Positions 1 through 53,020 of a stretch of 64,000 nucleotides of DNA are shown here, piece by piece. The notes beneath the pieces were generated by a model. The model worked only from the letters and a program-made list of their open reading frames with translations, did not search any database and was not told the DNA's origin. Source of the stretch: a virus. Both the position numbers and the translations under genes were made by a program. Position 1 is the stretch's first letter. Every line of letters begins with the position of its first letter. The DNA lies in the IMG/VR virus record IMGVR_UViG_3300036790_000396, positions 64,001-128,000 of that record, one strand, 5' to 3'.

Positions 1-3000
1 TCCCAGCCGGTTCTCGACGAGGACGGGCAGCCCGGCGTGGCACTGCTCCGTTCCCGGTTCACGCCCCTGATCCTCGCCCACGAGGCCGGGCACCTCCTGC
101 ACGTCCACCACGCCGGGATCGACGCGGGCCCCTACTCCCACCGTCACGGGGAGGAGGCCGGGAGCAGGATGCCCGACGAGGCCATGCACGGCCCGGAGTT
201 CTCCCGGCATTTCGCCGGAGCCCTCGATGCCATCTCGCCGGGCGCGGGCAGCGATCTCCTCCGCCACCGTGCCGATGCCGCCGCCCTGGTGAGCAACTAC
301 CGCCGCCGGTTCCACAGTCTCCCCCCGGTGGAGGCGTCGATGCCCGAGCCCGACTACGACCCCTCCGAGCCGCTGCCCCAGGGACGCGGCCTCTTCTGGC
401 GCCTGCACGACCCCGACGACCGCCCGCTCACGGAGCCGCACGCCCGCAGCCGCCGCGTGGACTGGGACTGGCTGAAGCCGGGTGAGACTGACCCGGACAC
501 CGGCCTGAAGAACGTGCACATCCAGACGGGACTGCGCGGTTTCTCCGCATTCCAGTCACCGCACCAGCTGCACCGGTACATGGAGGAGTACGGCTGGTCG
601 GAGGCGGGGCCGGACGGCGAGCACGCGTGGCCGGATTCCAGCCAGGTGGTCGCCTTCCACGGCAAGCAGGTGGGCCGGGGCGACGACGGCGAGCCTCTCG
701 TCATCCCGCACCCGAACGAGAAGTGCTGCGGGCGCATCATCCACTCCGGCATGGACTGGGACGAGTTCGAGCACCACGTGCAGCGCACCATGGGCAGCGA
801 CACCTCGTCTTCCCCCTGGAACCAGCAGCACGCGCACGAGAACTCCCCGGAGATCCGCTCGATCGAGCGGCATCATCACCCGCTGCGCCGCGGCCGGTTC
901 TACCCGCGCGCGCTGCGCGGCGGCCGGTTCTACCCGCACGAGGGAGCGCTGATGCGTCACTTCGCGGCCGGCCCCGAGGACTACGGGATGGACCACCGGC
1001 CTGACACTGGCGGCCCCCCGCTGCATGACCTGACCGACAGCAGCGAGACGGACTGGAGCCTGCCCGCTGACTACTACGACCGGATGCACGAGTACAGCCA
1101 GAACTATGATGCCGATAACCGCTACGGCATCGCCGAGTCCGAGCGGAAAGTGCGCCGCTACCGGGGGCAGCCGGACAAGCGCGTGAGAGTCTGGCGCGCT
1201 GCGCCGGCCGTGAACCCGGAATCCCGTAACGGCAAGCGCGGCGAAATCAACCACGGCGACTGGATCGGGCTGAGCAGGCAGAAAGCCGTCATGGAGGCTG
1301 CGAAGGAGAACGACCCTCCGTCCGGCAGCCTGCCCGCAGACCATCCGCGCCGCTATCACATCTGGTCCGCGATGGTTCCGGCGAAGCACGTCCGCAACGC
1401 GGACGGGGATCTCACCGAGTGGGGCTATGCCGGCCCCGACATCAAGGACATCACGCACTTCAGCGAGTACTGCAGCCACCGCGCCCGCGCGAAGCGCGAG
1501 GGGATCCTCCGGCACTTCGCCGGGGATTCTCCCGCGACCGGGCACTACGAGGAGCCCACGGGCGGATCGCTCTACCCGGTGCGGCACGTGTTCACCGCCG
1601 TCCACCCGGACGGCACCCGCGCCGACCTCCGGTACGTCCTGTCAAAGTCGGGGCGGAAGGGCGCGATGGACTCGCGCTTCCATATTCCGGCCGGCTACGG
1701 CGAGTCCCTCGGAGTCCCGCTCGCGCGGGCCGCCCGGCGCATGCACCCGCAGGCGAGGATCACCGGCATGCCCGGCGTCGGCCAGGACTGGGACTCGCTC
1801 CTGCCCTCGGTCACCTCACTGCACCGCGGCCTGACGCTGCGCCTCCCCCAGCCGGATCACTCTTTCCTCCACGACGACTCGGTGCCGAAGTCACGCCGGG
1901 CCGCGCGCCTGATGGAGCTGATGGCGGGGCACCCGTCGATGCACTGGGCCAGCCGCCGCGGGCTGGCCGCCGCCGAGGAGGATTTCGGCAATCACGAGTT
2001 CCGCAGGCCCGGCGATACCCAGGTGATGCTCAGCGCGGACGCGCCGCGCCGTGAGGACGTGGAGACGGATCCCGAACGGCTGCTCGCGCAGGACGTCCAC
2101 GAGCACGCGGCCCCGCACTGGGAGGTGCCGCTGAGAGAAGGCGCCCCCGTGAGCGTCACCTCCGTGCGCTGGCGGCAGGGCAGCGGCCCGTGGAGCAAGC
2201 ACCTGTTCCGGGGCGGCCGGCCGTTCACCGCCGCCCGGCAGCGGGAGGGCGACGAGCGCGAGTGGAACGGCTACACGCTGCGCTACCGCACCGAGGACCA
2301 GGGCGAGCGCAAGCCCAGGCACGTCATCGAGGCGTTCCCCGCGGACGGCACGGTCGCCGGGCGGCTCACCTGGTACGGCGCCACCGGGAAGATCCACCGG
2401 ATCGAGACGGCCGGCCCTGAGGACGCCCGCGGTGAGTCCGGCGACGGCTTCGGCAACGGCGCCGATCACCGCCGCAAGGGGCTCGCGACCGCGATGTGGG
2501 ACTGGTCGCAGGAGATGACCCCCAGGGCCCGCCATTCCGGTGACCAGACCGGCATGGGCACGGAATGGGCCCGCTCCCTGCGCCGCAAGGGCGCCCGCCG
2601 TGACCCGGCGCTTCCCAACCCGCACACGGGCGGCGACGAGTGGTTTCATGGCAGCCCCTGGAAGTTCGGCCAGTTCGGGGAGAACAGCAGCACGCTGGAA
2701 TTCGAGGATGATCCTCATGACACCAGCCACTGGAACGCCCTCCTGGGCCACCATTTCGCGGCCAGCCACAAGACCGCCGAGGAGTTCGCGGGCGCCGAGC
2801 ACTCCGCAGATCCTGACGGCAGCTACGACGATGGCGAGCCGGCGCGGAACATCATCCACGCCCGGCTGCACCTCACGAACCCGAAGATCTATGCCTCCGA
2901 GCACGACATGGACCAGGAGGCATACGAGCACGAGTGGAAGGCCGGCAACCACCACGACCTCCATCATGAGCCCGAGCTGCGCGATGATGAATGGGGCGGC

Positions 3001-4674
3001 GAATACGATCCCGATTATGACGAGCGGCCCCCGACCTACCAGTACGCCGGGCACGGCGACCGGATGCGCTCCCAGGAAGAATCTGACCCGTCCTACTGGA
3101 ACCAGTCACGTTCCTACCACCCGTACGCCACCGGCTGGCTGAATACCCACCCGGACAAGTACTCCATTGCGCAGCGCTTCAGGGACCGGCTGAAGGCCAG
3201 GGGCCACGACGGCATCGTCTACGGCAACGAGTTCGAGGGCTCCCAGATCGGCAAGGGCGACAAGCATCACCTGGCGGCGATTGCCTTTCACCCGCACCAG
3301 GTCGACGTGACCCAGCGGCACAGCGGCCCGGAGTGCATCGAGCCGGAGGCAGCCGGGCGCTCCTGGCCGGGCAGCCAGCAGCACCCTCTCCCCGGCATGC
3401 CGCGCGTGAGCGTCCTGCGGCACTTCGCTTCCGGCTATTTCGATGAGGTGAACTGGGACGAGATCCACCCCGAGATCGCGGGAGAGCCCCTCCACCGCGG
3501 CGTCGGCGTGACCCTTCCCGGTCACCTGCACCGCTTCGTCCACGACAGGGCGCTGCCCCGCCAGCAGCGCGCGGAGGCGCTCCTGGACTACCTGGGCGAC
3601 TCGGAGAAGCACGGCTACGGACGGGATTCGCAGGCGGGCCTGGGCACTCACTGGTCGATGCGCCGGGACACGGCCGAGAACTTCGCCGAGAACGCCGCGA
3701 AGCACGAGGGCGGGGGCGAGCCCCACCCTGACTACGGGATGATCCCCGGCGAGCGCGAGCACGCCGTCTACACGCCGCCGCCGCGGCCCGCGTCCAGGCC
3801 CGGCACCGCCGTGGTCTTCCATTCCCGCGTTCCGGACCGTGACGACATCGACGAGCGCGCCGGCGACGACATGGGCGTCTACCACCCCTACTCGCATGAC
3901 GAGGCGGAGGTGCCCGTGCGCTCCGGGGCCGGGATCGGCCTGACCGGCGTCTCCTGGGCACCGGTCCACGACGAGGACGACCCGCGCTCGTGGGACGGCC
4001 CGCAGTACGAGCACCACGAGTTCGGGGAGCCCGACTACCGTACGGCAGCCCGGTCGGGGAGCATGCCGCACCCGGACTACGATCCGTCGGAGGAACTGCC
4101 CGAGGGGCGCGGGATCTTCTATCGGGCGCACGACATGCGCCGTCCGCTCGATGAGCAGCACGCCCGCAGCGCCCCGCTCAGCCACGGCTACCGCCCGTTC
4201 CAGCAGAACCCCGTCTTTTCTGTCGGCCAGCGCGGCTACTCCTCTTTCCGCAGCCCGCACATGCTCAGCTCGTACATGGACGAATACGAGTGGGAGCCCG
4301 CGAAGGACCGGGAAGCAGTTGCCTTCCACGGGAAGCAAGTCGGGGTCGGGGAGGATAACGAGCCGCTCGTAGTCCCGGCCCCGGATCCGCATTGCTGCGG
4401 GCGCGTGATTCATTCCAGGATGCCGTGGGAGGAGTTCGAGCGGAAGACGTGGCCCTCGCACCTTAATGACCCGGAGTCGGAGGAGCACGGCTACCATGAC
4501 GTCGGCGCGCTCCCGCAGCCGTTGCGCCAGCCCTGGGCACCGGAACGCTGGGTGCCTGGTGCCCGCCCCTGGGAAAGCCCGGGGGACCGGTCGGAGCGCC
4601 GTCACCAGGAGAAGGAAGACCGCCGCCGCGAGCGCCGGGCATCCGCGCTGACCCTTACGGAGGCCATGGCATGA
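1..4674 (+). CDS. Giant modular (polyvalent-like) putative head/internal protein, 5'-truncated: zincin HExxH, duplicated unknown module, ART-like domains, GNAT, ART-PolyVal-like
   Basis: Frame is open from base 1. Motifs: LAHEAGH...HGPEF; HRRKGLATAMW (GNAT motif A); WFHGS...HFA...GHDGIVY (ART-PolyVal-like); two HRG...HW(S/A)...EVP modules; RHFA/RTAA junctions. Confidence 0.75.
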   Translation, partial: SQPVLDEDGQPGVALLRSRFTPLILAHEAGHLLHVHHAGIDAGPYSHRHGEEAGSRMPDEAMHGPEFSRHFAGALDAISPGAGSDLLRHRADAAALVSNYRRRFHSLPPVEASMPEPDYDPSEPLPQGRGLFWRLHDPDDRPLTEPHARSRRVDWDWLKPGETDPDTGLKNVHIQTGLRGFSAFQSPHQLHRYMEEYGWSEAGPDGEHAWPDSSQVVAFHGKQVGRGDDGEPLVIPHPNEKCCGRIIHSGMDWDEFEHHVQRTMGSDTSSSPWNQQHAHENSPEIRSIERHHHPLRRGRFYPRALRGGRFYPHEGALMRHFAAGPEDYGMDHRPDTGGPPLHDLTDSSETDWSLPADYYDRMHEYSQNYDADNRYGIAESERKVRRYRGQPDKRVRVWRAAPAVNPESRNGKRGEINHGDWIGLSRQKAVMEAAKENDPPSGSLPADHPRRYHIWSAMVPAKHVRNADGDLTEWGYAGPDIKDITHFSEYCSHRARAKREGILRHFAGDSPATGHYEEPTGGSLYPVRHVFTAVHPDGTRADLRYVLSKSGRKGAMDSRFHIPAGYGESLGVPLARAARRMHPQARITGMPGVGQDWDSLLPSVTSLHRGLTLRLPQPDHSFLHDDSVPKSRRAARLMELMAGHPSMHWASRRGLAAAEEDFGNHEFRRPGDTQVMLSADAPRREDVETDPERLLAQDVHEHAAPHWEVPLREGAPVSVTSVRWRQGSGPWSKHLFRGGRPFTAARQREGDEREWNGYTLRYRTEDQGERKPRHVIEAFPADGTVAGRLTWYGATGKIHRIETAGPEDARGESGDGFGNGADHRRKGLATAMWDWSQEMTPRARHSGDQTGMGTEWARSLRRKGARRDPALPNPHTGGDEWFHGSPWKFGQFGENSSTLEFEDDPHDTSHWNALLGHHFAASHKTAEEFAGAEHSADPDGSYDDGEPARNIIHARLHLTNPKIYASEHDMDQEAYEHEWKAGNHHDLHHEPELRDDEWGGEYDPDYDERPPTYQYAGHGDRMRSQEESDPSYWNQSRSYHPYATGWLNTHPDKYSIAQRFRDRLKARGHDGIVYGNEFEGSQIGKGDKHHLAAIAFHPHQVDVTQRHSGPECIEPEAAGRSWPGSQQHPLPGMPRVSVLRHFASGYFDEVNWDEIHPEIAGEPLHRGVGVTLPGHLHRFVHDRALPRQQRAEALLDYLGDSEKHGYGRDSQAGLGTHWSMRRDTAENFAENAAKHEGGGEPHPDYGMIPGEREHAVYTPPPRPASRPGTAVVFHSRVPDRDDIDERAGDDMGVYHPYSHDEAEVPVRSGAGIGLTGVSWAPVHDEDDPRSWDGPQYEHHEFGEPDYRTAARSGSMPHPDYDPSEELPEGRGIFYRAHDMRRPLDEQHARSAPLSHGYRPFQQNPVFSVGQRGYSSFRSPHMLSSYMDEYEWEPAKDREAVAFHGKQVGVGEDNEPLVVPAPDPHCCGRVIHSRMPWEEFERKTWPSHLNDPESEEHGYHDVGALPQPLRQPWAPERWVPGARPWESPGDRSERRHQEKEDRRRERRASALTLTEAMA

Positions 4675-7600
4675 GCAGCCGGCAGGCAGCGTGGACGCCG
4701 TCCGAGCGCATCTTCGGCCGAACATGGGGCCTGGATCACCGGCTGTTCAGCGGGGACCGCATGCGCCCGGAAGTCCGCAGGACACTCCTGGCGCGGCTGG
4801 ACAGCGCGCTGGAGCCCGTCCTCGGCCCGCAGTGGCAGGTCTTCACCCGCGCCTACCTCATGGGCTCGCAGGCGTCCCGCTGGACCTCCCCGGAGCTGGA
4901 GGGCAACGGGGACCTCGATGTCATCCTCGCGGTCGACCCGGGTCATCCCCACGAGGACGCCGGGCACATCAACGGCATCCTGCGGCGCACGTTCGACCGC
5001 GGGGACTGGCACCCGCCGTTCGATCCCCGGGGCACCTACGACCTGACGGGCTACGTCAACCCGCTGGCCTGGAACGTCACGGACATCAGCCCCTACGCTG
5101 CCTATGACCTGACCGGAGACCGCTTCGCCGTGGACCCCCCCGACCTTCCCGACTGGTCCCCGGACCAGTTCCCGCAGGGAAAGGCCCTGCTGCAGGAGGG
5201 CCGGGCTCTCGGTGCCCAGGCCCGCGCGCTGCTGCGGATGCCCGAGCCGTTCCGCTCGCAGGAGGCGCGGCGGCTGTGGGACTACATCCGCTCCGGCCGC
5301 GACGAGGGATTCGCTCCCGGCGGGCTGGGCTGGCAGTCTGCCGGGAATGTACTCGAAAAGATGCTCGACCAGATGCCCGGCAACCTCGTCGGCCGCCTGA
5401 AGGAAGCCGTCTACGGCAGGCAGGTCACTGCCGGCGCCTACGACTGGGCTGCTGACGAGGGGCCGTACACCTGGGAGGAGATCGGCGACCGGTACCCGCG
5501 CGTCTACGGCGAGGACTCCGGCGACAGCGAGGGAATCGGCTGGGCGGCCTCGCACCTGTACCACGACCGTCCCGGCCATTCGCAGGACGACAGCACGGGC
5601 GAGGAGTCCGCCGACGACATGGAGTTCCACCCGCGGACGGTCGACCCGGCCCGGATTGACTACATGCGCTCCGAGCCGGGAGACCCGCGCGTGACCCGGG
5701 CCCGCAGGGGATATGAGAGCCAGCAGCCGGAAAAGGTCCCGCCGCTGATCCTGGTGCACCGTAACGGCGTGTTCATGCCAGCCGACGGCCATCACCGGGC
5801 AGAGGGCGCGGCCAGGGCCCGCAAGCCGGTGCGTGCCTACGTGGCCTATTCCCCGCACGATGCCGAGCCGTTCTCCGACGGGGAGCGGGGCCCGTTCAAC
5901 GGTGCCGGGACCAGGGAACGGCCCCCGCTGACGGACCAGGACGGCCGGCAGTTCCGGATATCCTACCCCGGGTTCCCGCATACGGCCGAGACGGAGATCC
6001 CGCCGCGGGAGGCGTCGCTCCTGAGCCACTTCGCGGCCTGGGAGGACGAGTACGACGATGACCATGGCGACGGCCAGGATCCCGATCGCTACGTCGAGTG
6101 CGACCAGGGCCACCGCCACTGGGGCGCCGCCGGGGCCGCTGGCCTCCTGATCCGCCATAAGCGCCCCTCGGGCGAGCACGAGTACCTGCTGCAGAAGCGG
6201 TCCCCGTACGTGCAGCACGGCGGCACCTGGTCCACGCCCGGCGGTGCCCTGGGCCACGGCGAGACGCCCGAGGAAGGCGCGGTGCGCGAGGGCGAGGAGG
6301 AGCTTGGCGGGCTGCCCGACGATCTCTGGCACAGCCACACGAGCCATGACGAGCACGGCGGATGGAAATACTCGACTGTCGTCATGGACTCCCCGCGCCG
6401 GTTCGAGCCTGAGGGCGGCGGCGAGAGCGACTGGGAGCACGGCGGCCACGGCTGGTTCACGCCGGAGGAGATGAAGGACCTCCCGCTGCACCCCGGATTC
6501 GCGGCGAGCTGGGACCGGGTCCGCAAGTCCGGGGCCCTGCGCCAGGCCGTCGTCGATCCCGCCAGCCTGCCCCGCGACCAGCTGAACGGGATCACGCGTG
6601 CCCGCGTCTACTACCCGCCGGGCCAGTCGGAGGACCGGCGCCTCCTCGACGTGGCGAGCAGGCCGCGCCCCGGCACCCGCGTGTGGCGCGGCGAGCTGCG
6701 CCCGGAGGGGGAGAACCCGGGGAACGTGCAGTCGGTCGGCATGCACTGGACCGTGAACCCCAGGGCGCTGCTGCTGCGCGGCAATGAGCCGGGGTGGAGG
6801 CAGCACGTCTGGCAGGGCGTCGTCGATGACTTCGGCTCCCAGGCGTTCCCCCGCAGCCATGATGTGTGGAGGGCGGTGCGCAGCGGCGACGGGGAGCACG
6901 AGATCCGTTTCCGCCCCGGTGCCCGGGTGCGCCTGGAAGGCGCCTACGTGTCCGGCAGCGGCACGGGGGACCGCCGGGAGCCGATGGGGATCCTGGATCC
7001 CCTCCACCCGGAGAGTACCGACCCGCGCTGGGAATGGCACCCGATGGACCGGCCCGTGACCGTCCGGCACCGCCCCGGGGCGCCCGGCTCTCCCTCGCGG
7101 GGAGGTGCTGACTACGCGTCCCTGGGCATCAGCCACGAGGGCGTGGCCCACGATGACTCCAACCCGTACCTGATGGTGGCCGTCGTCCCGCCCGAGCATG
7201 TCTCCGCCGCCCTCGCGGAGTCGATGGAGCCCCTTACCCGCCATGACCCGGAGCCGCCGGAGGAGCATCACGTCACGATGCTGTACCTGGGCAAGGAGAA
7301 GGACCACACCCCGGCGCAGCGCGCGAAGCTGCCCGGCCTGGTCCGGGAGTGGGCGTCCTGCCAGCAGCCGTTCACCGTCCGCGTGCAGGGCGCGGGGACG
7401 TTCGCTAACGAGGGCGAGCACACCGTCCACGCCCTGGTCGACATGCCCGACGGCCATCACCTCCGCACGTCACTGGAGGAGCACCTCGCCGGCCATGGCA
7501 TCTCGTGGCCGCGGGATCACGGGTTCGCCCCGCACCTGACGCTGGCCTACTCGCAGCAGCCGGTCCGGTTCCTGCCCAGTGTCCCGCGCTCGGAATGGAC

Positions 7601-7679
7601 CGCCGGCCAGGTGCACTGGTGCCGCGGGAAGGACTGGCAGCCTGTCCCGCTGGGCCGCGCGCCTGCTAAGGTTAATTGA
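4671..7679 (+). CDS. Multidomain protein: Pol-beta-type nucleotidyltransferase, ParB/Srx-like, Nudix hydrolase, ART-like, 2H phosphoesterase
   Basis: GSQAS...GDLDV; PPLIL...ADGHHRA; PGG...GETPEEGAVREGEEELG (Nudix box); VWRGE...GMHWT...EHEIR; HVTM and HLTL (2H motifs). ATGA overlap with the upstream gene. Confidence 0.8.
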   Translation: MSSRQAAWTPSERIFGRTWGLDHRLFSGDRMRPEVRRTLLARLDSALEPVLGPQWQVFTRAYLMGSQASRWTSPELEGNGDLDVILAVDPGHPHEDAGHINGILRRTFDRGDWHPPFDPRGTYDLTGYVNPLAWNVTDISPYAAYDLTGDRFAVDPPDLPDWSPDQFPQGKALLQEGRALGAQARALLRMPEPFRSQEARRLWDYIRSGRDEGFAPGGLGWQSAGNVLEKMLDQMPGNLVGRLKEAVYGRQVTAGAYDWAADEGPYTWEEIGDRYPRVYGEDSGDSEGIGWAASHLYHDRPGHSQDDSTGEESADDMEFHPRTVDPARIDYMRSEPGDPRVTRARRGYESQQPEKVPPLILVHRNGVFMPADGHHRAEGAARARKPVRAYVAYSPHDAEPFSDGERGPFNGAGTRERPPLTDQDGRQFRISYPGFPHTAETEIPPREASLLSHFAAWEDEYDDDHGDGQDPDRYVECDQGHRHWGAAGAAGLLIRHKRPSGEHEYLLQKRSPYVQHGGTWSTPGGALGHGETPEEGAVREGEEELGGLPDDLWHSHTSHDEHGGWKYSTVVMDSPRRFEPEGGGESDWEHGGHGWFTPEEMKDLPLHPGFAASWDRVRKSGALRQAVVDPASLPRDQLNGITRARVYYPPGQSEDRRLLDVASRPRPGTRVWRGELRPEGENPGNVQSVGMHWTVNPRALLLRGNEPGWRQHVWQGVVDDFGSQAFPRSHDVWRAVRSGDGEHEIRFRPGARVRLEGAYVSGSGTGDRREPMGILDPLHPESTDPRWEWHPMDRPVTVRHRPGAPGSPSRGGADYASLGISHEGVAHDDSNPYLMVAVVPPEHVSAALAESMEPLTRHDPEPPEEHHVTMLYLGKEKDHTPAQRAKLPGLVREWASCQQPFTVRVQGAGTFANEGEHTVHALVDMPDGHHLRTSLEEHLAGHGISWPRDHGFAPHLTLAYSQQPVRFLPSVPRSEWTAGQVHWCRGKDWQPVPLGRAPAKVN

Positions 7680-12646: not shown

Positions 12647-12870
12647 AGCGCTACCCGCACGATCCGCGTCTTCACCCAGTACCAGCCGTCGAAGTTCCAC
12701 TCGACCTGGCCGCCGGCGCAGTGGTACCGCTCGTGCGCCTGCGCCTTCAGCTGCACCTGGCGGATCGTCTCGTCCGGTCGCGTGTCGCCCGACCGCAGCA
12801 GGTGCTCGCGCAGCTCCCCGCGCGTGAGGCGCACCAGGTGATCCTCCGGCACGCTGATGGTGCTTCCCAT
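12643..12870 (-). CDS. Hypothetical protein
   Basis: AAGGAG RBS. Confidence 0.5.
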   Translation of the reverse strand: MGSTISVPEDHLVRLTRGELREHLLRSGDTRPDETIRQVQLKAQAHERYHCAGGQVEWNFDGWYWVKTRIVRVAL

Positions 12871-13065
12871 TACTTCTCCTTCAGGATGCGGTCGCTCAGC
12901 CGGCTGAACACCATCATGGCGAGGGTGCCGCCCGCAGCGACAAGAGCGAGGACGGCGAGGATGCGCGCGCTTCCTTCCCTTTTACTGTACCAATGTTTAT
13001 TGATAAAAGCTAGTCATTGCCGAAGCCGCCCCGGAAGGACAGAAGACCACCGTGAGGGAGAACGC

Positions 13066-26192: not shown

Positions 26193-26267
26193 GCCCTGCA
26201 TATTACCAATAAATCTTGGTATATGCCACTCGTCTGCGGCCCGTCCTCGGAAGCAACGGGAGGCACG

Positions 26268-33195: not shown

Positions 33196-33231
33196 GGGGC
33201 CATCCCTCGGAAGAAACGAGAGGGAGGCCCC

Positions 33232-37400: not shown

Positions 37401-40400
37401 GAGCGCACTGTTCTCAAGGGCTGGCAGGAAGTGCCGGCCGGGCAAGAGGGAGACTTCGTGAGCAGCAGGGACTTCACCGGGCGCCATCCCGAGCCGCCGC
37501 CGGACAACCTCGCGATGCTGCCTCCCTCCGAGGCCGCGAGGAACGAGGAGACCTGGCCCGAGCTGCCCGGCGCCGACCTGGTTTCCTCGCCCCAGGAGCG
37601 CAGCAAGCCGTATCACCCCGAGACGACCCTGGAGAATTTCGACCACCGCGAGTGGATCAACGACATCGACCCGAACGCTCACAAGTCCGGGGACAAGGGC
37701 TGGTTCGAGCACACCCTCAGCTCCCTCCGCGCCCAGGCCGCAGAGGAGGGCGAAGAGGAAGACGAGCCCGCGCCCCGGTCCCTGCGCGAGTTCCGCGTCA
37801 GCCCCCGCCAGGGTCATCCCGGCCAGGGCGGAACGGTGCCGAAGAACCCGCAGTCGGCCATCACCAACGCCGTGCCGCACGACTGGGCAGCGGCCTACGG
37901 GCCGCTGACTCGCGCCAAGATGAGCGCCCTGGAGCCCACTCCCCGCGCCTTCCTCCTGGCCGTCGCCGCGGCGGCCTCTCCTGCCGCCGGCCCGGATGAC
38001 GACGATCCCGGTGAGGACGAGGAAGACGCCGAGGAGATGCCGGGCGGCTTCGATGACCGCGCCCTGATGCCGCAGGTGCTGCAGGGGCAGGCCCCTCCCG
38101 GCGCGTTCGCGCCGCCGCCGGTGGCGGCCGAGGGCCTCGATCCCTACAGCCAGGCCGGGATGAGCAGCCAGGACCGGCTGATGCGCCAGTACGAGCGTGA
38201 TCACCCCGGCGCGGGCGAGCTGAAGCCGTTCAGCCGCGACGACGAGACGGAGCGGAAGGAAGACCGCGAGAGCGTGCAGGCGCATGCGTCGCTGCGCGCC
38301 CTCGCGTCGCTGCCGGCGTTCCGGTTCGAGGTCACCGCCTCCTGGAACGACGTGCAGGCCAAGGCGCAGCGGCTGCGCACCACCGGGTCGGTGAGGATCA
38401 CCCACGCCACGAAGGGCATGATCATCGGCGAGGTCCGCGGCGACCACGCTACCTACGAGTCCGGCATCCAGTCCTATCCGGGGCGCCCGCAGTCCGTGAT
38501 GGCATGGGAGTGCGGCTGCCCCTGGGCGTCCTTCCACCAGAATCAGCCGCGGGGCAGCTCCCGCTTCGCGGCCCGGATGTGCAGTCATGCCCTGGCGATC
38601 CGGTACGAGGCGCAGTCCCGCGGCATGTTCGGCCGCACGGTCGCTCCCGACACCCGCGCCCCGTCGTGGCAGCCGCACGACGTCGTCGTCAAGTCCTGGC
38701 CGCCGTACGAGGGCGATCCGCACGCCGGCCGCTGGCGCGAGCAGCTCATGGCCCCGGCCGCCAGCCGTACCGCCGCGCGGGAGGGGGGGCTGCCGTTCGT
38801 CCCGTCCTACGGGCAGGACGATCTCCGCGCGCACCTGATGCACCACCACGGGCTGCCCGCGTCGTTGCAGAACGCCCACATGAGCGACGCGGAGACAGAG
38901 CGGTGGCACCGGGGGAAGCACCGGAACCGGACGGACGAGACTCACCAGCACGAGCGGCCGGAGGGCATCGGCGCCGAGCACGAGTACCCCGCGATGGCCG
39001 AGCCGTCCGAGGACTACGGCGCGTGGAACGGCGACCGGGAGGTTCACCCGCGGTACTTCCCCGGGATGCTCGCTGACGAGGACCGGTCGCGGGCGTTCGG
39101 GCCGCTGCCGCCCTCCTACAGCTCGCTGCAGAGGACGGCTGCCGAGGACGAGGACTCCCAGCAGGACGTCCCGTTCGGCGAGGGCGTCACGCCCGGCCAC
39201 CCGTTCCGCCGCGGTGACATCTCCAACGGCATGTACTCCCCGCACACCCAGCTCGGCAGTCCCTGGTACCTTCCCGCCGGCACGCAGGAGCGGTACGAGG
39301 AGGGAAGCAGCGACGAGCACGCCGGGCAGCTCAGCGCGCTCCGCGAGCAGCGCGAGGAAATGCGGGAGGACGCCGAGGAAGAGGAGCGCGAGCGCCGCGA
39401 GCACCAGGAGAACGGCGGCGGCTTCCGGCCGCGCCCGTCACTGCGCATGTCCCGCCGCGTGACCGCCGACCAGGCCAATGCCCCCTGGGGTGCCCAGAAC
39501 GTCGTGCAGCACCTCCCGCAGCAGCCCTACGGTGCCACGTCGCCGGCCGAGAAGGACCAGGATCCCGGCTCCTACGGCCCGCTGTCCGGCCCCGACCCGG
39601 AGAACTGGGGCGAGATCCAGGACGGGTCGGCCGTCCAGATGCCCCTGAGCAGCGAGGCCGTCCTGCATTACATCGCCGCCGGCGCCGCGGTGATGGACGC
39701 TCCCGTGCGCACGCGCCAGGTCAGCAGCCCGAAGCTCAGTGATGACGGCGGGGGTCCTCCCCCGCTGGAGATGGGCAGCGGCGGCGGAGGAGACGGCGAG
39801 GGCCGGTACCGGTACCTGATCACCCGGCACAGCCCCAACGGCTTCAGCCTCATCAACGACCTCCCGGCGGGTCATCAGGACCAGCATGTCTCCTACCACC
39901 ACACGGCGGACGAGGCGCTGCACATGCTCGGCCACAAGCAGCGGGCCGGGTCGGCTTCCCCGCACGAGGTGTACTACCTGCCGAAGATGGACGACACTGC
40001 GGGATGGAAGCAGAGCGACCGCGGGATGTACTGGGAAGACCAGGGGCGCAAGCCGCCGCCGCGCTACGACTGGGGAAAGAAATACCAGGAGCACCTGAAC
40101 CGCTGGTTCAATCCCCGCTCTCCTTCGTACAGCCCGCACCCCGATTACGTGCCGGCCTCGGCTGACATGAGCGACGCGGAGCTGCAGGACCACTGGAAGC
40201 AGCAGCACTCCCAGACGCCCATGCCGAAGCTGCGCAGCCGCGAGCAGCATGATCACCGCCATGACCGGCTGACCGACGACGTGCTGCCCGAGTCATTCGA
40301 CTCGTTCAAGAACCAGTCGAATGACTTCAGGGACCAGAAGAAAGGCGTCGAGCTGTTCGGCTGCCCGGCGAACCACCTGGAGGCCAGGGACTCCGCCGGG

Positions 40401-46433: not shown

Positions 46434-46459
46434 CCGCGGGGATCACCGGGGGAGCGGTC

Positions 46460-46821: not shown

Positions 46822-47739
46822 ATGTCGCTGACCAAGTACGCCAGCCTGGAGCTGCTGGAGGCGTGGCGCGTGCCCGCGAAGGCGACGCCGCGCGGGCTGT
46901 CCAAGGCGGCGCACCGCGTCGACTTCGAGTACACGCCGCGGCCCGGCTACCTCGCGTACTGTTGCCATGTGAGAGACAGCAACAAGGGAAAAAGCTGCAC
47001 GGGGCCCGGGTGCCTTCGGGAAGCAAAATGCAAGGGTCTTTGCCTTGCTCATTACACTCAGCGGAGATCTGGAAAAGATCTTTCCGTGATCCGCGTTCGT
47101 GCAAAAAATGCTACGGACTCCTGCGTATTTCCCGGATGCGATCGTCCCCATTTTGCTAAAGAATACTGCAAATCCCACTATCATCAGCGGCAGCGTCACG
47201 GAGAAGTAACAGTATTTCGTCAGTTCTTGGAAATTTGTTCTTTTCCTGGATGCGATCGTGGTCACTCTGCGCATGGATACTGCGACGGGCATGCGATTCA
47301 GCTGCGGAAGGGAAAGGAGCTGTCTCCCCTCCGGGCTCGCCAGAAGGGCCGTGTATGCACAGTAGACGGCTGCAGCGATCCTTACCTTGCCCGCGGCTTC
47401 TGCGCAGTTCATTATAACCAGTGGCACTGGGCTGAATCGGAAGAGGGACGCGAGGCTCGAAAACGTGCTTTCCACAAGCGACGTGCTATTAAGGCATCTG
47501 CCGAGACAAGACTGATCTCTTCTCGCGAATGGAAGCGCCTGGTCAATCGTTACCAGGGGAAATGTGCTTATTGCAGGAAGGCCCCGTGGAATCATCGTGA
47601 GCACATAATTCCCCTAAGCCGCGGTGGAAGGGAATCGATCGGGAACCTGCTTCCGTGCTGCGAGAGATGCAACACGTCTAAGCACAATAAGCTTCTCTCT
47701 GAGTGGAGGTACGGTGCTTCGCAAGTACGCATCGCTTGA
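46822..47739 (+). CDS. HNH homing endonuclease fused to the original N-terminal 44 codons of the prohead protease
   Basis: Four C..PGC....A.G.C..H repeats; CAYC...EHIIPLSRGG...NL...C..CN..K; N-terminus paralogous to 47714-47833. Confidence 0.88.
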   Translation: MSLTKYASLELLEAWRVPAKATPRGLSKAAHRVDFEYTPRPGYLAYCCHVRDSNKGKSCTGPGCLREAKCKGLCLAHYTQRRSGKDLSVIRVRAKNATDSCVFPGCDRPHFAKEYCKSHYHQRQRHGEVTVFRQFLEICSFPGCDRGHSAHGYCDGHAIQLRKGKELSPLRARQKGRVCTVDGCSDPYLARGFCAVHYNQWHWAESEEGREARKRAFHKRRAIKASAETRLISSREWKRLVNRYQGKCAYCRKAPWNHREHIIPLSRGGRESIGNLLPCCERCNTSKHNKLLSEWRYGASQVRIA

Positions 47740-47833
47740 GGTACTGGAGGCGTGGCGTCAGACATCTTCTGCTGCTATGTCGAAAACTGCTCATAGAGTA
47801 GATTTTTCGTACATTCCACGTAAAGGATACTTG
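46954..47833 (+). mobile_element. HNH insertion element carrying a new RBS and recoded protease 5' end
   Basis: Low GC; removing it restores PRPGYL|YVRSRAISSR in frame. Confidence 0.75.
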
Positions 47834-50800
47834 TACGTCCGCTCCCGGGCTATCTCCTCGCGCACCAACGACAACCACGACACGTTCGAGGCCCCGGAGA
47901 TCGAGCAGGGCTACCGGACTTTCCTCGGAAAGCCCGCCTTCGTGAATCACCGTAACAGCAACCACCGCCGTGCCCGCGGCGTCATCGTGGCCGTGGCGCT
48001 GCACCGGGACCGCAACCCTGACGGCTCCCCCGACACCTGGGTCGAGGCACTGCACGAGCTGGACGCGGTGCGGTTCCCCAAGCTGGCGAAGGCGATCATC
48101 GAGGGCCGCGTCAACCGCACCTCGATGGGCGTCGACTGCGAGTACTCCACCTGCTCCGCGTGCGGCAACCGGGCCACCAACCCTGCTGAGTACTGTGCTC
48201 ATCTTCCGGCTCGCAAGGGGCTGAAGATCAGGCAGCGTAACAATGAGACGGGGAAACTGGAAGAGAAGCTTATTCATGAAATATGTGCTGGTCTTACATT
48301 TTTCGAGAACAGTTTTCTCGTAGAGGATCCTGCCGACCCAACTGCCCATGTTTTGGACAAGCCGGACGACAGGGGCATGAAAATAAATGCCTCACGTCAC
48401 GTGCTTCCAGGTGCGCCCCATGCGGATGCAGTTGACCGAGGAAACGGAAACGCCGTACCGGCGCGCTATGTCAGCGAGCGTGAGCGCCCCGGAACCCCGG
48501 TTCATCCAGTCCTTGCCCGTCGCGACCTGAGGCAGCAGTTCACGCTTGATGATCCGGACATCCTCTTCGGTCAGCCTGCGGTTGGGATGAGTCGCCCCGC
48601 GAGCGTGCCGTTCTTTGGACACCATGTCAGCGACGTTGTCGGCCCGCGTGCCGAGGAACCAGTGCATCGGGTTCATGCACGGCGGCCAGTCACAGCGGTG
48701 GAGTACCCCCAGGCGCGCAGGGATCGGGCCGCGAATCAGCGCCCATCCGTATCTCGATCCCAGGACACTTCTGCGGTCCGTGCCCGACAGCGTGAACCGC
48801 GGGTAGCCGGTCCTGAAGAATCCTCCCGTCCACGGATTGCAGAATCCCGGTCCGGGCGTGAAGTCGATTTTCGACAGGAAGCGCTCGATCTCGGACTCAG
48901 TGCTCGCGAAGCGTCCGTCTACCAGCGATCGTTCCATGGACGTGATTCTATCAATAATCCTAGGCAGGCCCGCTACCTCACCATGGATGAGGCCCGCGCT
49001 GCGGGCCGCGAGGCCATCCGGCGGCAGGCGGAGGATCCCCGCTTCGACGGCGTCGGCCTGAAGCAGGACGATGACGGCTGGTACGTGCGCACGCACCGGG
49101 CGCGCAGCCGTTCCCATCCCGTCCCGGAGGCGATCCCCGCGAAGGACATCGAGTTCATCCGCTCTACCGGGTCCCGCCGCACCGCCCGCAACGAGGAGGG
49201 CGGCGAGATGCCGGTAGTCCCCTCCAGCCGCCTCCCCCGGGTGAGCCTCCCCGAGTCCCGGAGCAGCTATGAACAGGCCGGCGACTTCCTGGATAACCTG
49301 CTGGGCAACGTGGGAAATCCGGACGCGGCTGAGTGGAGGCCGTCCTATCCCACCCGCGGCTGGGACGACGAGCGCCAGCCCAGGCTGCACGAGGAGCTGC
49401 GCAAGTCGCGCGAGCGCAACCTCCGGCGCGACATTGACGATGACAGCGGCGAGGGCCTGGCCAGCAAGCTCGACCGCCCGGAGCAGTGGGAGCACCAGAT
49501 CGAGCACGGCCTCCCGGAAAGCCTGTTCGGTGCCGGCGTGCACGTCACGCACGATTTCAGGGACGATCCCGAGGGCTTCCTCCGCGACCGGTGGAACATG
49601 CGCGCCTTCCCGTACCGCGACCCGGGCGGCACCGGCCCCGGAGGCCTGAAGCCGTCGAACAAGTGGGTCCGCAAGACCTGGCAGCGGGCAGTCGGCCCGC
49701 TGGCCTGCGACCACCCCGGCTGCCCGCCCTGGGAGCACCGGGGGCCGCGCCCTCAGGCATCGCTGCGTACCGCTGACCGGGACGATGATTACTTCTACGA
49801 CGAGGACGACGATCAGCACCCGGATGAGCTGCCGAGCCGCCGGGACTGGCGCCGGGAGGATGACGTGACCCGCAGCGAGTCCTACCCCTATTCGCCCTCT
49901 CCCGGCTCGGAGGGGCGCGACGACCTGGCGGGCTCCCGCACCCGCGGGCGCCGCGCCGCCGAGTCGTGGGACGGCTTCCCCGACGTGCGCCCCGCTCCGC
50001 CGTCCGGCCCGCGCCTGTCCAGCCGTGTCGCGGCTGCCGGGGACAGCTGGGAGCCTGATCAGTGCCCGGAGTGCGGCGAGGGCTGGACCGAGGGCAGCTC
50101 GCGTTTCGATGACTCAGACTCGCAGTGCCTGAACTGCGGTACCCGTTACAATGCTTTTTCCGGGGCTCCGCTCAGCGATGACGAGATTGCCGTTAATGAT
50201 GCTGCGATGGCCAACGAGCAGCAGAAGCGCGAGGACACGCGCTCCGGGCAGGAACTGTGGAGGAAAGTCCACCCGGGCCCCGGGCACGAGTACTCCTATA
50301 ACCCGGCCGGCGACAATGCCCCGCTGGAGATGATGAATGACCTGCAGGACCAGGAGAACCAGGACAAGAGCGGACCGCTGCGGCTGAACCCGAGGCTTCC
50401 CTCCTACGAGAAGATGATGCGCCGCCGGCGCGAGCGCGCCATCCAGCAGTGGCCGTCCCATCAGGAGGTCCCCGTCGCCCCTCCGGGGACGGAGAGGCTG
50501 TCCAGCCGCATGGCGAAAGGGCGCCATGACTACCGGATGATGCACCAGGCTCCCGACCGGCACAGCGGCGTTCCCTATCACGAGGCGAGCGGCGCGGACC
50601 CGGATGACCTGGTCACGATCTACCGGGGAGTGCCCCGGAACGTGAAGACGATTCACCGCGGCGACTGGGTGACCACCGATCCGGCCTACGCCCACCAGCA
50701 CGGGCGCCACAACTCCGACCCATCGAAAGACTGGCCGGTGCTGCAGGCGGACGTTCCTGCGCGGCACCTGTACTGGGACGAGAACGACGAGAACGAGATC

Positions 50801-53020
50801 GGCTACCAGGGGCCGCACCTGGGCCAGCGTGACGTGAGCTACCACGAGGAAGACCCGGATGATGTCCCGGGCGCTGCCGATCCTGATGCGTGGCGCGGGC
50901 ATTTCGCCTCCGTGCGCCGCCGCGCGGACATCTCCGACGACGAGATCCGCCGCGGCCTGAACCTCCCCGGCTCCCGCGAGGAGGAGCACCAGGAGGACGT
51001 GCGCGACAAGGTGAACGGCCTCTTCGGCCCGCTGCACGAGGACTACGGCGGCCAGGAGAACTACAACCTCGCCCGGCAGAACGACACGATGACGGACCTG
51101 CAGCGCCGCTTCGAGGGCGGCCGGGGCAGGTTCGCCTTCGACGAGGAGGGGGACCCCTACTACGAGGCCCGGCACCCGTCCGGCTGGAGGGCCCGTGTCT
51201 ACACCGACCAGAGCGGCGAGGCCCAGGTCCACCACGACGCGACCGGCGACGAGGCCCACGACGTGATGGACATCGGCGAGTGGGGGCCGCAGGGTCACCG
51301 CCTGTCAGAGACCTACGGCCCCGCCGATCTTGACCGTGATCTCGCCGCGTGGCACGGCGATGACGGCGAGGAGGGGTACCGGGCGCACCTGGAGCAGGAG
51401 GACCCGCGCATCCGCCGGCGGAAGCGCCGTCATCAGGGCGCGCGCCGTACCGCCGCCGACCAGCCGCCGCGGATGCCCCCGCCCGTCGACACGCTGCGCC
51501 CCGACAAGTGCCCCGTCTGCGGGGACAGCGACGTGTTCAAGGGCCAGCGCTGCTCCGTGTGCGGGTTCGTCGCGCCGCCGGACATCTTCCGCGATCCCGA
51601 CACCCAGCAGGCCGCGCAGAACCACCAGATGCTCGAAGAGGGCAAGGTCCCCCTCGGCATGCCGGAGGGGCCCGCCGACGAGGAGCAGGTCGGCTCCGGC
51701 CAGGACGCTGACGACCAGCTGCTGCACCCTGACCAGATCGCCCCCGACGGCGTCCCCGGCGTGCAGCCCGGCAGCAGCCAGCCCGAGAACGGCCCCCTCG
51801 GCGGCGGCCAGGACGAGGGCCTCGTCGATCCCTCCCGCGTGAGCGCCCAGGGCGACGTCCCCGAGGAGGACGAGGAGCAGGCGGCGCAGCAGGAGACGGA
51901 CGAGGGAGAGCAGCAGGCGGCGGAAGGACAGGCCGAGGAGGAAGAGGGAGCGGCCCGCGCCGACGAGGCGCAGGCAGCCGCAGCGGGGGAGCAGGAGGCC
52001 GAGGACGCTGACGCGGATGCCTCGCCCCGGAAGGATCAGGACGACGACCGCCCCGGAGGGAAACGCAGGATGGCTAAGCAGCAGCAGCGGCGGCAGGCAC
52101 CGCCCCGGTCTCGCCAGGAGCCGCGGACTGCCGCGACTGCGGTGCTGGCCGCCCAGCAGGACACCATCCGCCGGCAGGCGGCCCAGATCCGCTCTCTCGC
52201 CGCGCAGATGAGCTTCCTCGCGGACCTCGCCGGGGTCCGGCCGCAGATGGAGCAGATCCGCCGGCAGGCCGACATGATGAACCCGGCCTCCCCCGTCCCG
52301 GACCCGCCGGAGCGGCCCCCGTACGAGACCACCGAGCAGGCGCTCCAGCCGGAGACGATGGGCGACGCGAGCCGCCCGGGCACCGAGCCCGGGTCGACGT
52401 CGCACGTGCCTGCCGCGATGACCACCACTTCCGTCACGCCGGGCGTCGAGATCCAGACGGCGCCGGCCTCCTACCTCGATGACGTCACCGCTCCCGTCCA
52501 GGGCACCAACCCGTCGGAAGACGGCGGCGTGCCGGTTGAGCAGCGGCGCATCGAGACCGATGTCCGGATTGACCCTGACCCGCTGAAGGCCCAGGGTCCG
52601 GGCATCGGGGGACTGGGCAGCGACGGCACCGCCTACCCGTGGGTGATCGCCGCCCGCGGCGGCATGCCGCGCACCGCCTCGCAGGCGGCGGCCTCGCAGG
52701 AGGATGAGCACGGGGCGCGCACGTTCGCCTCGATCCGCCTTGCCCGCGCCCGCGTCACCGCGGGGCTCGCCCGCGGCGACGAGCTGGAGGGCGCGGCCCT
52801 CATCGAGAAGGACGCGTCGCTGTCCCTGAGGGACATCGAGCGGGAGATCGGCACGCTGGAGAAGGTCGCCGCCGCGGCCCCGCCGCAGCGTCCCCGCGCC
52901 TCGCAGCGCACCGCCGCCCGGTCGGCGCCGTCGATGTCCGCGCCGCCGCAGCTGGCCCGCACGGCGAGCTACTCCGACCCGGGCGACCCGATGGACGCCT
53001 CGGACGTGTTCCTCGACTGA
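47714..53020 (+). CDS. Prohead (capsid maturation) protease / cargo / scaffold polyprotein
   Basis: GGAGG RBS plus GTG; RAISSR.NDN.D.F...GKP.FVNH...TSMG...CS.CGN protease-like domain; internal modules; helical scaffold-like C-terminus. Confidence 0.8.
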   Translation: MLRKYASLEVLEAWRQTSSAAMSKTAHRVDFSYIPRKGYLYVRSRAISSRTNDNHDTFEAPEIEQGYRTFLGKPAFVNHRNSNHRRARGVIVAVALHRDRNPDGSPDTWVEALHELDAVRFPKLAKAIIEGRVNRTSMGVDCEYSTCSACGNRATNPAEYCAHLPARKGLKIRQRNNETGKLEEKLIHEICAGLTFFENSFLVEDPADPTAHVLDKPDDRGMKINASRHVLPGAPHADAVDRGNGNAVPARYVSERERPGTPVHPVLARRDLRQQFTLDDPDILFGQPAVGMSRPASVPFFGHHVSDVVGPRAEEPVHRVHARRPVTAVEYPQARRDRAANQRPSVSRSQDTSAVRARQREPRVAGPEESSRPRIAESRSGREVDFRQEALDLGLSAREASVYQRSFHGRDSINNPRQARYLTMDEARAAGREAIRRQAEDPRFDGVGLKQDDDGWYVRTHRARSRSHPVPEAIPAKDIEFIRSTGSRRTARNEEGGEMPVVPSSRLPRVSLPESRSSYEQAGDFLDNLLGNVGNPDAAEWRPSYPTRGWDDERQPRLHEELRKSRERNLRRDIDDDSGEGLASKLDRPEQWEHQIEHGLPESLFGAGVHVTHDFRDDPEGFLRDRWNMRAFPYRDPGGTGPGGLKPSNKWVRKTWQRAVGPLACDHPGCPPWEHRGPRPQASLRTADRDDDYFYDEDDDQHPDELPSRRDWRREDDVTRSESYPYSPSPGSEGRDDLAGSRTRGRRAAESWDGFPDVRPAPPSGPRLSSRVAAAGDSWEPDQCPECGEGWTEGSSRFDDSDSQCLNCGTRYNAFSGAPLSDDEIAVNDAAMANEQQKREDTRSGQELWRKVHPGPGHEYSYNPAGDNAPLEMMNDLQDQENQDKSGPLRLNPRLPSYEKMMRRRRERAIQQWPSHQEVPVAPPGTERLSSRMAKGRHDYRMMHQAPDRHSGVPYHEASGADPDDLVTIYRGVPRNVKTIHRGDWVTTDPAYAHQHGRHNSDPSKDWPVLQADVPARHLYWDENDENEIGYQGPHLGQRDVSYHEEDPDDVPGAADPDAWRGHFASVRRRADISDDEIRRGLNLPGSREEEHQEDVRDKVNGLFGPLHEDYGGQENYNLARQNDTMTDLQRRFEGGRGRFAFDEEGDPYYEARHPSGWRARVYTDQSGEAQVHHDATGDEAHDVMDIGEWGPQGHRLSETYGPADLDRDLAAWHGDDGEEGYRAHLEQEDPRIRRRKRRHQGARRTAADQPPRMPPPVDTLRPDKCPVCGDSDVFKGQRCSVCGFVAPPDIFRDPDTQQAAQNHQMLEEGKVPLGMPEGPADEEQVGSGQDADDQLLHPDQIAPDGVPGVQPGSSQPENGPLGGGQDEGLVDPSRVSAQGDVPEEDEEQAAQQETDEGEQQAAEGQAEEEEGAARADEAQAAAAGEQEAEDADADASPRKDQDDDRPGGKRRMAKQQQRRQAPPRSRQEPRTAATAVLAAQQDTIRRQAAQIRSLAAQMSFLADLAGVRPQMEQIRRQADMMNPASPVPDPPERPPYETTEQALQPETMGDASRPGTEPGSTSHVPAAMTTTSVTPGVEIQTAPASYLDDVTAPVQGTNPSEDGGVPVEQRRIETDVRIDPDPLKAQGPGIGGLGSDGTAYPWVIAARGGMPRTASQAAASQEDEHGARTFASIRLARARVTAGLARGDELEGAALIEKDASLSLRDIEREIGTLEKVAAAAPPQRPRASQRTAARSAPSMSAPPQLARTASYSDPGDPMDASDVFLD
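48392..48937 (-). CDS. HNH endonuclease with C-terminal HTH, nested antisense inside the protease ORF
   Basis: C..WTG...GY......V.H.CD.P.C.NP.H...GT..DN..D...K.R; HTH tail; own -10 TAGAAT 7 nt upstream of the ATG. Confidence 0.9.
   Translation of the reverse strand: MERSLVDGRFASTESEIERFLSKIDFTPGPGFCNPWTGGFFRTGYPRFTLSGTDRRSVLGSRYGWALIRGPIPARLGVLHRCDWPPCMNPMHWFLGTRADNVADMVSKERHARGATHPNRRLTEEDVRIIKRELLPQVATGKDWMNRGSGALTLADIARRYGVSVSSVNCIRMGRTWKHVT
52070..53020 (+). CDS. Putative internally initiated scaffolding protein (in frame with the protease)
   Basis: GGAGGG/AGG RBS and an upstream 18-bp copy of the putative late-promoter motif (52025-52042). Confidence 0.5.
   Translation: MAKQQQRRQAPPRSRQEPRTAATAVLAAQQDTIRRQAAQIRSLAAQMSFLADLAGVRPQMEQIRRQADMMNPASPVPDPPERPPYETTEQALQPETMGDASRPGTEPGSTSHVPAAMTTTSVTPGVEIQTAPASYLDDVTAPVQGTNPSEDGGVPVEQRRIETDVRIDPDPLKAQGPGIGGLGSDGTAYPWVIAARGGMPRTASQAAASQEDEHGARTFASIRLARARVTAGLARGDELEGAALIEKDASLSLRDIEREIGTLEKVAAAAPPQRPRASQRTAARSAPSMSAPPQLARTASYSDPGDPMDASDVFLD

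Follow-up and report, generated by a model that had tools for sequence, protein, structure and literature searches.

A short peptide motif, a basic residue, any residue and alanine (basic-x-Ala), recurs at conserved positions in the head assembly proteins of an uncultured phage and at the borders of exchangeable modules in its giant open reading frames (ORFs). The phage is represented by IMG/VR record IMGVR_UViG_3300036790_000396 (146,944 bp, 68% G+C), and we analyzed a 64,000-nt stretch of it (the window, record bases 64001–128000); unless stated otherwise, coordinates are positions in the window. The plus-strand ORFs concerned are called A to I here, F being the portal and I a fusion of a predicted prohead protease, a variable cargo stretch and a scaffold-like block. 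Reading from the genes, we lean towards the view that the head protease cuts the giants at these basic-x-Ala linkers (tags) and so releases the modules as capsid cargo, with A–D handled alike.

No DNA-level match to the window was found among 50,697 phage records (Megablast with ORF I), and its relatives are detectable at the protein level only. The portal is 38–39% and the major capsid protein (MCP) 58–59% identical to those of cluster C mycobacteriophages (Myrna, Bxz1 type), Rhodococcus phage E3 and Gordonia phages. IMG/VR contains at least 281 stretches encoding a related MCP, the best 80 of which are 80–94% identical, and several of these relatives sit on complete genomes of 155–166 kb. 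Judged by these identities, the source is an uncultured soil phage distantly related to cluster C mycobacteriophages. It belongs to a large clade of soil phages, and the closest phages to that clade in culture are well-known actinophages.

Tag Enrichment in the Giant ORFs

We counted all tri- and tetrapeptides in seven giants without a prior motif and compared the counts with an expectation based on composition. RTA (18 observed vs. 3.6 expected), TAA (17 vs. 3.7), HFA (7 vs. 1.0) and KTA (5 vs. 0.7) were in excess, ASL (17 vs. 3.7), DPD and ART were also among the most over-represented tripeptides, and the top tetrapeptides were RTAA and TAAR, each seen 7 times against 0.36 expected. The remaining proteome of 29,497 aa contained RTAA and HFA once each. 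Thirty motif copies were spelled by 23 different 9-mers, including codons rare for the genome; the signal is thus at the level of the peptide, and a DNA-level repeat or recombination signal was rejected. Motif counts in the other reading frames are uninformative because composition varies between frames.

The enrichment recurs in two complete relatives, G005 and G002, where the top tripeptides of the giant homologues are TAA and KTA. In these genomes, [RKH][VITF]A occurs 0.48–0.52 times per 100 aa in the giants, ~2.2-fold over expectation, and 0.23–0.28 times in other proteins, at or just below expectation. A weight matrix trained on anchored junctions of the relatives found 32 sites in the giants, in comparison with 14.4 ± 3.9 in shuffles. 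The site is degenerate, and predictions of single sites are therefore unreliable. RRA and RQA, which a first-pass annotation made from the letters had listed as tags, are not individually distinctive.

Tags at the Capsid, Portal and Scaffold

The MCP (58104..59123, plus strand) lies beyond the range covered by the first-pass annotation, which had nevertheless read its leader as ending in the same kind of motif. Here the leader is GLRRVA↓ARKSDDYV (the arrow marks the end of the tag; GLRRVA↓A at 58164–58184), and across 37 distinct leader sequences, from 36 relatives and the window, the basic-x-Ala ending holds: a variable N-terminus of 10–25 aa is followed by conserved (G/S)-L-R-(G/P)-(R/K)-(V/I/T/F)-A and then by (A/S/K/R)(R/K)KSDDY. 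Variants of this tag are RTA in one relative and GLGRFA↓K in Myrna and E3.

ORF I (47714..53020, plus strand) is a polyprotein of 1768 aa. In its N-terminal ~250 residues it matches phrog_18299 (head maturation protease; E 1.1e-21); the protease domain (47774..48397, plus strand, with a Cys4-type insert) has 45% identity with the N-terminal part of Myrna gp97, and the ORF is an ortholog of E3 gp77, annotated as “prohead protease.” The His of VNH and the Ser of SMG are invariant across 13 diverse sequences. In the ESM Atlas, the nearest named cluster to the protease was Peptidase_S77 (0.92, 144 shared features), which is a weak lead only.

The 34 distinct orthologs of ORF I (709–2045 aa) have in common only the protease (residues 28–258) and the scaffold block (from ~1283), their middle being hypervariable. 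Directly after the protease, most of them carry KAAS(R/K)TA. Ahead of the conserved YGE..VDTLR block, P1 is Ala in 21 of the 22 distinct junctions and P3 is Lys or Arg in 13; the junctions were picked by their position relative to that block, and the motif played no part in their selection. The E3 ortholog lacks an insert and reads ...KRKQA↓YGETEAPKEVDTLR directly after the protease, at the site where Myrna gp97 has an insert of ~385 aa. In the window, the hypervariable cargo stretch (48404..51457, plus strand) contains the tags REA↓S at 48905, RRTA at 49178, LRTA at 49766, RRAA at 49949, RVAA at 50024 and HFA at 50900, and is closed by RRTAA (51443–51457). The scaffold-like conserved block that follows (51458..53017, plus strand) has the VDTLR sequence, a zinc ribbon, an acidic stretch and five RTA(A/S) or RQAA tags.

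The motif is found in the other assembly proteins as well. Ahead of the conserved portal core, R(R/T)A(A/S) is present in three genomes, in the window as RRA↓S at 29600–29611, and the C-terminal extension of the same portal carries RTA↓S at 32606–32617. At the scaffold end, basic-x-Ala-(Ala/Ser)-Arg stands ~35 aa ahead of an acidic tail of the form ...D-x-S-D-(L/I)-F. ORFs G and H, which overlap by ATGA and form one gene in the relatives, are the counterpart of Myrna gp96 and E3 gp76; in this gp96-like protein, (R/K)TA is kept ~55 aa from the C-terminus, from Myrna and E3 to the uncultured clade, with divergent flanks. At the sequence level, one motif is therefore common to the MCP propeptide, scaffold, portal and internal proteins.

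The tails themselves are alike. Similar acidic-hydrophobic ends close H (41955–42113, ..HEDDVLWV) and the scaffold (52907–53017, ..DASDVFLD), each after an (R/K)TA tag, and the relatives show the same. Their similarity suggests a shared capsid-binding end that a cut ~35–55 aa upstream could remove.

Names in the databases do not follow this architecture. Myrna gp97 (L001 28589–32224) is labeled “tape measure” in GenBank, yet it is an ortholog of the protease-cargo-scaffold ORF I, and its insert has a G-x-G-x-G motif resembling the SAM-methyltransferase motif. The protease part of ORF I is itself matched by phrog_27806, “DNA methyltransferase,” and names given to such fusions may thus be wrong.

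Tags at Module Borders

We took as homology breakpoints the positions at which local alignments between 21 giants from three genomes begin or end, and counted a breakpoint as near a tag when it lay within 10 aa of [RK]TA or HFA; the null came from circular shifts (1000 shuffles). Of the 237 breakpoints, 27 were near a tag, in comparison with 13.1 ± 3.4 expected, and none of the 1000 shuffles attained the observed count. The controls, in which Ala was replaced by Gly ([RKH][VITF]G), the order was reversed (A[VITF][RKH]) or P2 was occupied by other residues ([RKH][LMQE]A), were all three at chance. Among the ORF I orthologs (n = 34), 75 of 344 breakpoints were near a tag, with 45.4 ± 5.7 expected. 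These counts do not represent independent events, as related sequences share junctions. The frequency of the motif at domain boundaries relative to elsewhere had been set beforehand as the refuting test, and near homology breakpoints it is about twice that expected by chance.

Individual junctions show modules inserted or moved at tags. In H, two tags, PLSSEA↓ and SSLHTA↓, enclose an insert of ~300 aa; the corresponding place in G005 is one uninterrupted junction, PLSNTA↓SH. A ParB-C-like module that resides in A here follows LLEHFA↓S immediately downstream of the protease in a relative (L003) whose MCP is 93% identical. The folded core of an ART-like module (model residues ~275–468) lies between HFA (266–268) and RTAA (472–475), at most 7 residues from the tag on both sides. 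The idea that insertions map between motifs, raised in the first-pass annotation, thus agrees with the H insert and with the hypervariable middle of I in the 34 orthologs and does not extend to all junctions, some being untagged.

Two other explanations of the tags were dropped. That they are remnants of domain ends was rejected for the ParB-C-like module, as the homolog in Myrna gp78 ends untagged and the copies here are tagged ~25 aa past the domain. Signal-peptidase-like AxA sites were set aside because the tags are internal and, on reading the sequence (no formal test), have no adjacent hydrophobic core.

Modules and Domain Assignments

Module families, defined by fragment BLAST and small hidden Markov models, recur in different ORFs, the protease/scaffold ORF included, as had been noticed at first reading. 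An ART-like module of ~190 aa (family 2) is present twice in A (1756..2328 and 3433..4071, plus strand, the core of the latter between the HFA tag at 3421–3429 and the RTAA tag at 4039–4050), once in G (33562–34152) and three times in H (34419–34994, 35712–36308 and 36297–36935), and seven more copies were found in relatives. ORF A has three copies of a DUF6098-like module, and the ParB-C-like module (phrog_2579, “ParB C-terminal domain”; E 6e-18 and 8e-22) occurs in A and in I (50594–50821). ORF B contains a NUDIX domain (nt 6174–6494, E 8e-14) and a 2H phosphoesterase (nt 7191–7565, E 8e-12), both above Pfam cut-offs.

The matches of other modules are weaker. The PF18760 ART-PolyVal match in ORF A is sub-threshold (E 0.011, 17 bits against a cut-off of 31), its HEAGH..HGPEF sequence gives weak Pfam metallopeptidase matches below the cut-offs (M66, E 0.011; Reprolysin_4, E 0.027), and the GNAT-like label is based on sequence reading alone. 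Searches of Pfam, NCBIfam and, by sequence, the PDB gave no match for the protease, C, D, E, G and most modules.

For the ~190-aa module, R22 (of HRG) and E159 (of EVP) are invariant in 12 copies, and in most of them W-(S/T) follows the invariant W74. We searched structures with an AF2 model of the module (pLDDT 75.5). In Foldseek, the best E was 0.023 and most top rows, including the top 29, were ARTs. In VIA, the first 46 entries were all ARTs of the cholera/pertussis/Scabin/TreX kind (LT, CT, PT, TreX, Scabin and pierisin), with Z 5.0–5.6, where values <8 are not decisive, and rmsd 3.5–4.3 over about 100–125 residues. As the structural matches reach only these Z values, we call the module ART-like and do not claim family membership. 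A profile search among proteins of similar length gave one match, and the module therefore resides mostly inside long proteins. A second AF2 model, covering 682 aa of A, was confident solely for the ART-like domain and cannot tell the neighboring linkers from domains.

Several unrelated effector-type domains are thus found in single polypeptides, NUDIX and 2H in B and six ART-like copies with other families in A, G and H, and by their positions the genes are encoded among late or virion genes with a portal-terminase system. Giants of the A type and B fit the description of polyvalent proteins.

A Second, His-Phe Tag

The LRHFA sequences are part of a broader pattern, hydrophobic-hydrophobic-x-His-Phe-(Ala/Glu/Asp/Gly/Ser). 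Across three genomes, the A/B/H-type giants contain this HF tag 16 times, and the other proteins (104,761 aa) contain it a single time. In the window, HFA lies at nt 208, 958, 1513, 2752 and 3421 in A, 6027 in B and 50900 in I. The first-pass annotation took the motifs to end in Ala, a rule that the HF tag does not obey: among relatives, Glu or Asp is the usual final residue (VVAHFE, LLEHFE, AVVAHFD), HFG also being found, and the Ala ending is, in the sequences compared, peculiar to the genome of the window. The HF tag often stands directly behind a tag of the first class, as in HTAA-LLEHFE and REAS-LLSHFA, and is also found ~25–45 aa from the N-terminus of A-type giants. It would represent a second linker code, possibly for sorting or for a second protease, and the zincin-like module of A is a candidate reader.

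Gene Layout

The giant ORFs are supported as coding by their GC3 of 0.83–0.90, and the ORFs and motifs were found where they had been reported. Their coordinates mostly stood, with two corrections: A starts 2,192 nt upstream of the window, and H starts at 34419 in the ATGA overlap with G, the pair corresponding to one gene elsewhere. G, H and I are situated between portal and MCP, and A–D lie 12–30 kb upstream of the portal on the same strand.

The part of ORF A in the window (1..4674, plus strand) belongs to a polyvalent-type giant of 2,288 aa and has, in order, HEAGH zincin-like, DUF6098-like, ParB-C-like, ART-like, GNAT-like, ART-PolyVal-like, ART-like and DUF6098-like modules, with RTAA at 4039 in addition to its HFA tags. 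ORF B (4671..7679, plus strand; 1,002 aa) contains three further modules without family assignment and the composite tag REAS-LLSHFA at 6006–6035. ORFs C (12721..14574, plus strand; 617 aa) and D (15098..17026, plus strand; 642 aa) are without known family. C has four RTA, one KTA and one RQAA, and D has ASRRVRRTA twice, at nt 15530 and 15749, the two copies standing 73 residues apart. A 33-aa stretch is common to C (residues 247–279) and D (residues 6–34), with 58% identity.

ORF E (25782..29465, plus strand) contains an intein-like insert of the LAGLIDADG type; toward its C-terminus it has three repeat modules, each with a terminal REAS(L/A)RR. In the portal (29462..32842, plus strand), an intein-like insert containing a LAGLIDADG_3 domain separates residue 137 from residue 532; the insert of E (residues ~183–503) is 36% identical to it. 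ORF G (33133..34422, plus strand) is the N-terminal part of the gp96-like head protein, with the tag RKQAA ahead of its ART-like module. ORF H (34419..42116, plus strand; 2,565 aa) retains the conserved Cys/His core common to Myrna gp96 (~38262–38777), contains inserts as well, and has the tags KTAA at 34983, RTAA at 38766 and 39132, VTA↓D at 39465 and KTA↓E at 41955 before its acidic-hydrophobic C-terminal tail.

Several smaller ORFs surround or overlap ORF I. A minus-strand ORF of 181 aa (48392–48937, minus strand; GC3 0.80) lies wholly within it and has an HNH_3-like motif (Pfam E 0.003, below the cut-off). It starts directly after the degenerate post-protease junction ..MKINA↓S, and over its length the GC3 of the I frame, which is still open, drops to 0.52–0.69. 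An HNH endonuclease ORF (46822–47923; Pfam HNH_5, E 8e-11) ends at the start of ORF I, the first 300 nt of which have 54% G+C in comparison with ~70% elsewhere. Between scaffold and MCP, 53190–54026 encodes a tail-fibre-like ORF of 278 aa with a K1-lyase_C chaperone domain (E 2e-22), an unusual location for a fibre gene, and an HNH-like ORF (59242–60219) lies downstream of the MCP.

Discussion

In the mechanism that we favor, the head-maturation protease would read a loose site with a basic residue at P3 or P4, Thr, Val, Ile, Phe, Leu or Gln at P2 and Ala at P1; Ala or Ser(-Leu) frequently comes next. A cut at such a site would remove the ~25-aa capsid leader and an N-terminal piece of the portal, separate the protease from the part downstream and fragment the scaffold. 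Foreign modules would have been acquired at tag linkers by two genes, that of the protease and scaffold (I) and the gp96-like one (G+H). Carried into the procapsid within an assembly protein, such modules would then be released by the same cuts. The upstream giants A–D bear the same tags, have modules in common with G, H and I, and would probably be treated likewise, as polyvalent-type cargo. Whereas the motifs, their enrichment, the anchored conservation and the exchange of modules at tags are observations, we infer cleavage, packaging and delivery from them. Our confidence in cleavage and packaging is higher for the MCP, scaffold, portal and I, about even for A–D, and lower for the injection of the released modules.

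A number of observations speak against this mechanism or narrow its reach. Only about 11% of the homology breakpoints have a tag within 10 aa. Of the eight junctions of ORF A inside the window, five are tagged and three untagged, and ORF B, with five modules, has one composite-tagged junction. The claim that module boundaries fall on basic-Ala motifs is thus supported in part, by the excess near breakpoints, and not by three junctions of A and most of B. The site has low information, the density of matrix hits in the giants being 1.5 times that in other proteins, and the enrichment is weak in the cultured relatives (P = 0.03 in Myrna, not significant in E3). The HF tag, with its HFE, HFD and HFG endings in relatives, is outside the Ala rule and may therefore have a different reader. 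ORFs A–D are separated from the portal by small genes on both strands and have no acidic tail of the type seen in H and the scaffold. The protease is without a Pfam match (13 members) and without a PDB match by sequence or profile. In the literature searched, we found no proteomic or biochemical datum on this clade, and a paper on the Myrna capsid is silent on cleavage.

The tags could instead be flexible linkers that ride with mobile modules or ease in-frame recombination, with the giants acting intact, packaged whole like the N4 virion RNA polymerase, or never packaged, and only the capsid leader and scaffold being cut. The many untagged junctions and the low information of the motif agree with this, as does a tag neighborhood slightly less hydrophobic than background (0.205 vs. 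0.226, P = 0.03), and polyvalent proteins can be packaged unprocessed according to the text of Iyer et al. 2017 that was examined (PMC5512222). Linkers of this kind would nevertheless leave unexplained that the tripeptide is kept at anchored positions, while its flanks diverge, from Myrna and E3 to the uncultured clade, that the tags are spelled with many different codons and that the domain in Myrna gp78 is without any tag. Furthermore, the same module has tag versions typical of the genome, RHFA here and AHFE or AHFD in G005, a pattern more readily explained by co-evolution with a trans-acting reader than by inheritance along with the module. We consider the explanation by linkers unlikely. 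A different objection concerns the enzyme: the giants might be cut by the HExxH zincin module of A, by MPTase-type autoprocessing or by a host protease, the HF tag being the site. ORF A has HEAGH..HGPEF with its weak metallopeptidase matches, the HF tag is nearly confined to A/B/H-type giants and does not obey the Ala rule, and autoprocessing by MPTase, with P1 DdrB as the example, is proposed in the examined text of Iyer et al. (PMC5512222). The zincin match is below the Pfam cut-off, however, H and I are tagged without a recognizable zincin, and the [RK]-x-Ala class is common to MCP, scaffold, portal and protease, the classical substrates of a head protease; cutting by another enzyme thus appears quite improbable to us.

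Last, A–D might not be virion proteins at all but cytoplasmic multi-enzyme takeover proteins, in which case the tags would be a compositional habit of the long proteins of this phage. These ORFs are apart from the portal-to-MCP block, lack the capsid-binding tail, and no family assignment links them to virions. Other long proteins of the genome are not enriched, however, with 70 tags seen and 85 expected, and modules of A recur in G, H and I, one of them inside the protease polyprotein of a close relative; we give this explanation little credence. Cleavage at the tags by the head protease, our preferred mechanism, also has a bolder version that is possible but doubtful. There, I and the gp96-like genes would form an open loading dock: any in-frame insert between two basic-x-Ala sites would be packaged with the scaffold in many copies per head and cut free, the HF tag being a second and independent code, for sorting or for a second protease. 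Such a dock would explain the variable middle of the gene in nearly every relative, the hopping of modules between A-type giants and the protease gene, and the tolerance of an antisense homing-nuclease gene in frame.

Published work on head processing in T4 and in phiKZ and SPN3US establishes the principle (PMC5694885), and that on polyvalent proteins, in the text examined, the type of cargo (PMC5512222). In T4, gp21, a single head protease, cuts the MCP, the scaffold or core and the internal cargo (IPI–III, Alt) at one short motif; the cargo includes an injected ADP-ribosyltransferase, and foreign proteins can be loaded by adding a capsid-targeting tag (PMC5694885). A short motif common to MCP, scaffold and internal cargo is found here too, read from the genes alone. 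It ends in Ala, unlike the (L/I)-x-Glu of T4, and whereas T4 cargo comes from separate small genes with an N-terminal tag, here modules are strung in giant ORFs and even within the protease-scaffold gene. Head processing is also extensive in phiKZ (protease gp175) and SPN3US (protease gp245): numerous head proteins are cut, a number of them more than once, the portal is made with a propeptide, and the protease trims itself at the C-terminus (PMC5694885). The latter two features match the tags found here ahead of the portal core and behind the protease domain, but the motif there is (S/A/G)-x-Glu, the substrates are separate paralogous genes and not modular polyproteins, and the phage lineage is unrelated.

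In the examined text of Iyer et al. 2017, polyvalent proteins are giants of 2–15 effector-type domains (ART, GNAT, zincin, ParB-like, NUDIX, 2H) that are encoded beside virion genes, mosaic and predicted to be injected, a description matched by ORF A and by ORF B with its NUDIX and 2H domains (PMC5512222). The authors propose there release by embedded metallopeptidases, and mycobacteriophages are covered via solo domains only, for example Alice gp113. The word “linker” is absent from that text and “prohead” occurs once, and it describes no shared linker motif or tie to a head protease (PMC5512222).

The closest counterparts, Myrna gp97/gp96 and E3 gp77/gp76, agree with the proteins of the window in gene order, in the VDTLR block of the scaffold, in the Cys/His core and in where (R/K)TA is placed. 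With 895–1211 and 603–1155 aa, they are much shorter than ORF I (1768 aa) and ORFs H and G (2565+429 aa), contain fewer modules and are less strongly enriched in tags, and their GenBank labels are “tape measure,” “LysM-like” and “prohead protease.” Protease and scaffold also occupy one reading frame, with self-cleavage, in lambda C/Nu3, P2 gpO and Mu I/Z; we know of no foreign enzyme modules between protease and scaffold in these. In the literature searched, we found neither a shared linker of head-protease type joining many modules in giant ORFs nor a hypervariable cargo stretch inside a protease-scaffold gene.

If the cuts are real, two subjects so far treated apart, the processing of internal proteins by head proteases and polyvalent effectors, would unite, and the phages would have a simple rule for adding injected enzymes without new regulation or a packaging signal. 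The site could then be used, in laboratory strains, for loading chosen proteins into mycobacteriophage capsids. The clade includes the well-studied cluster C mycobacteriophages, and its cultured relatives permit a direct test. Were the cuts confirmed, the mature ends of capsid, portal, scaffold and cargo would become predictable across a large clade of soil phages.

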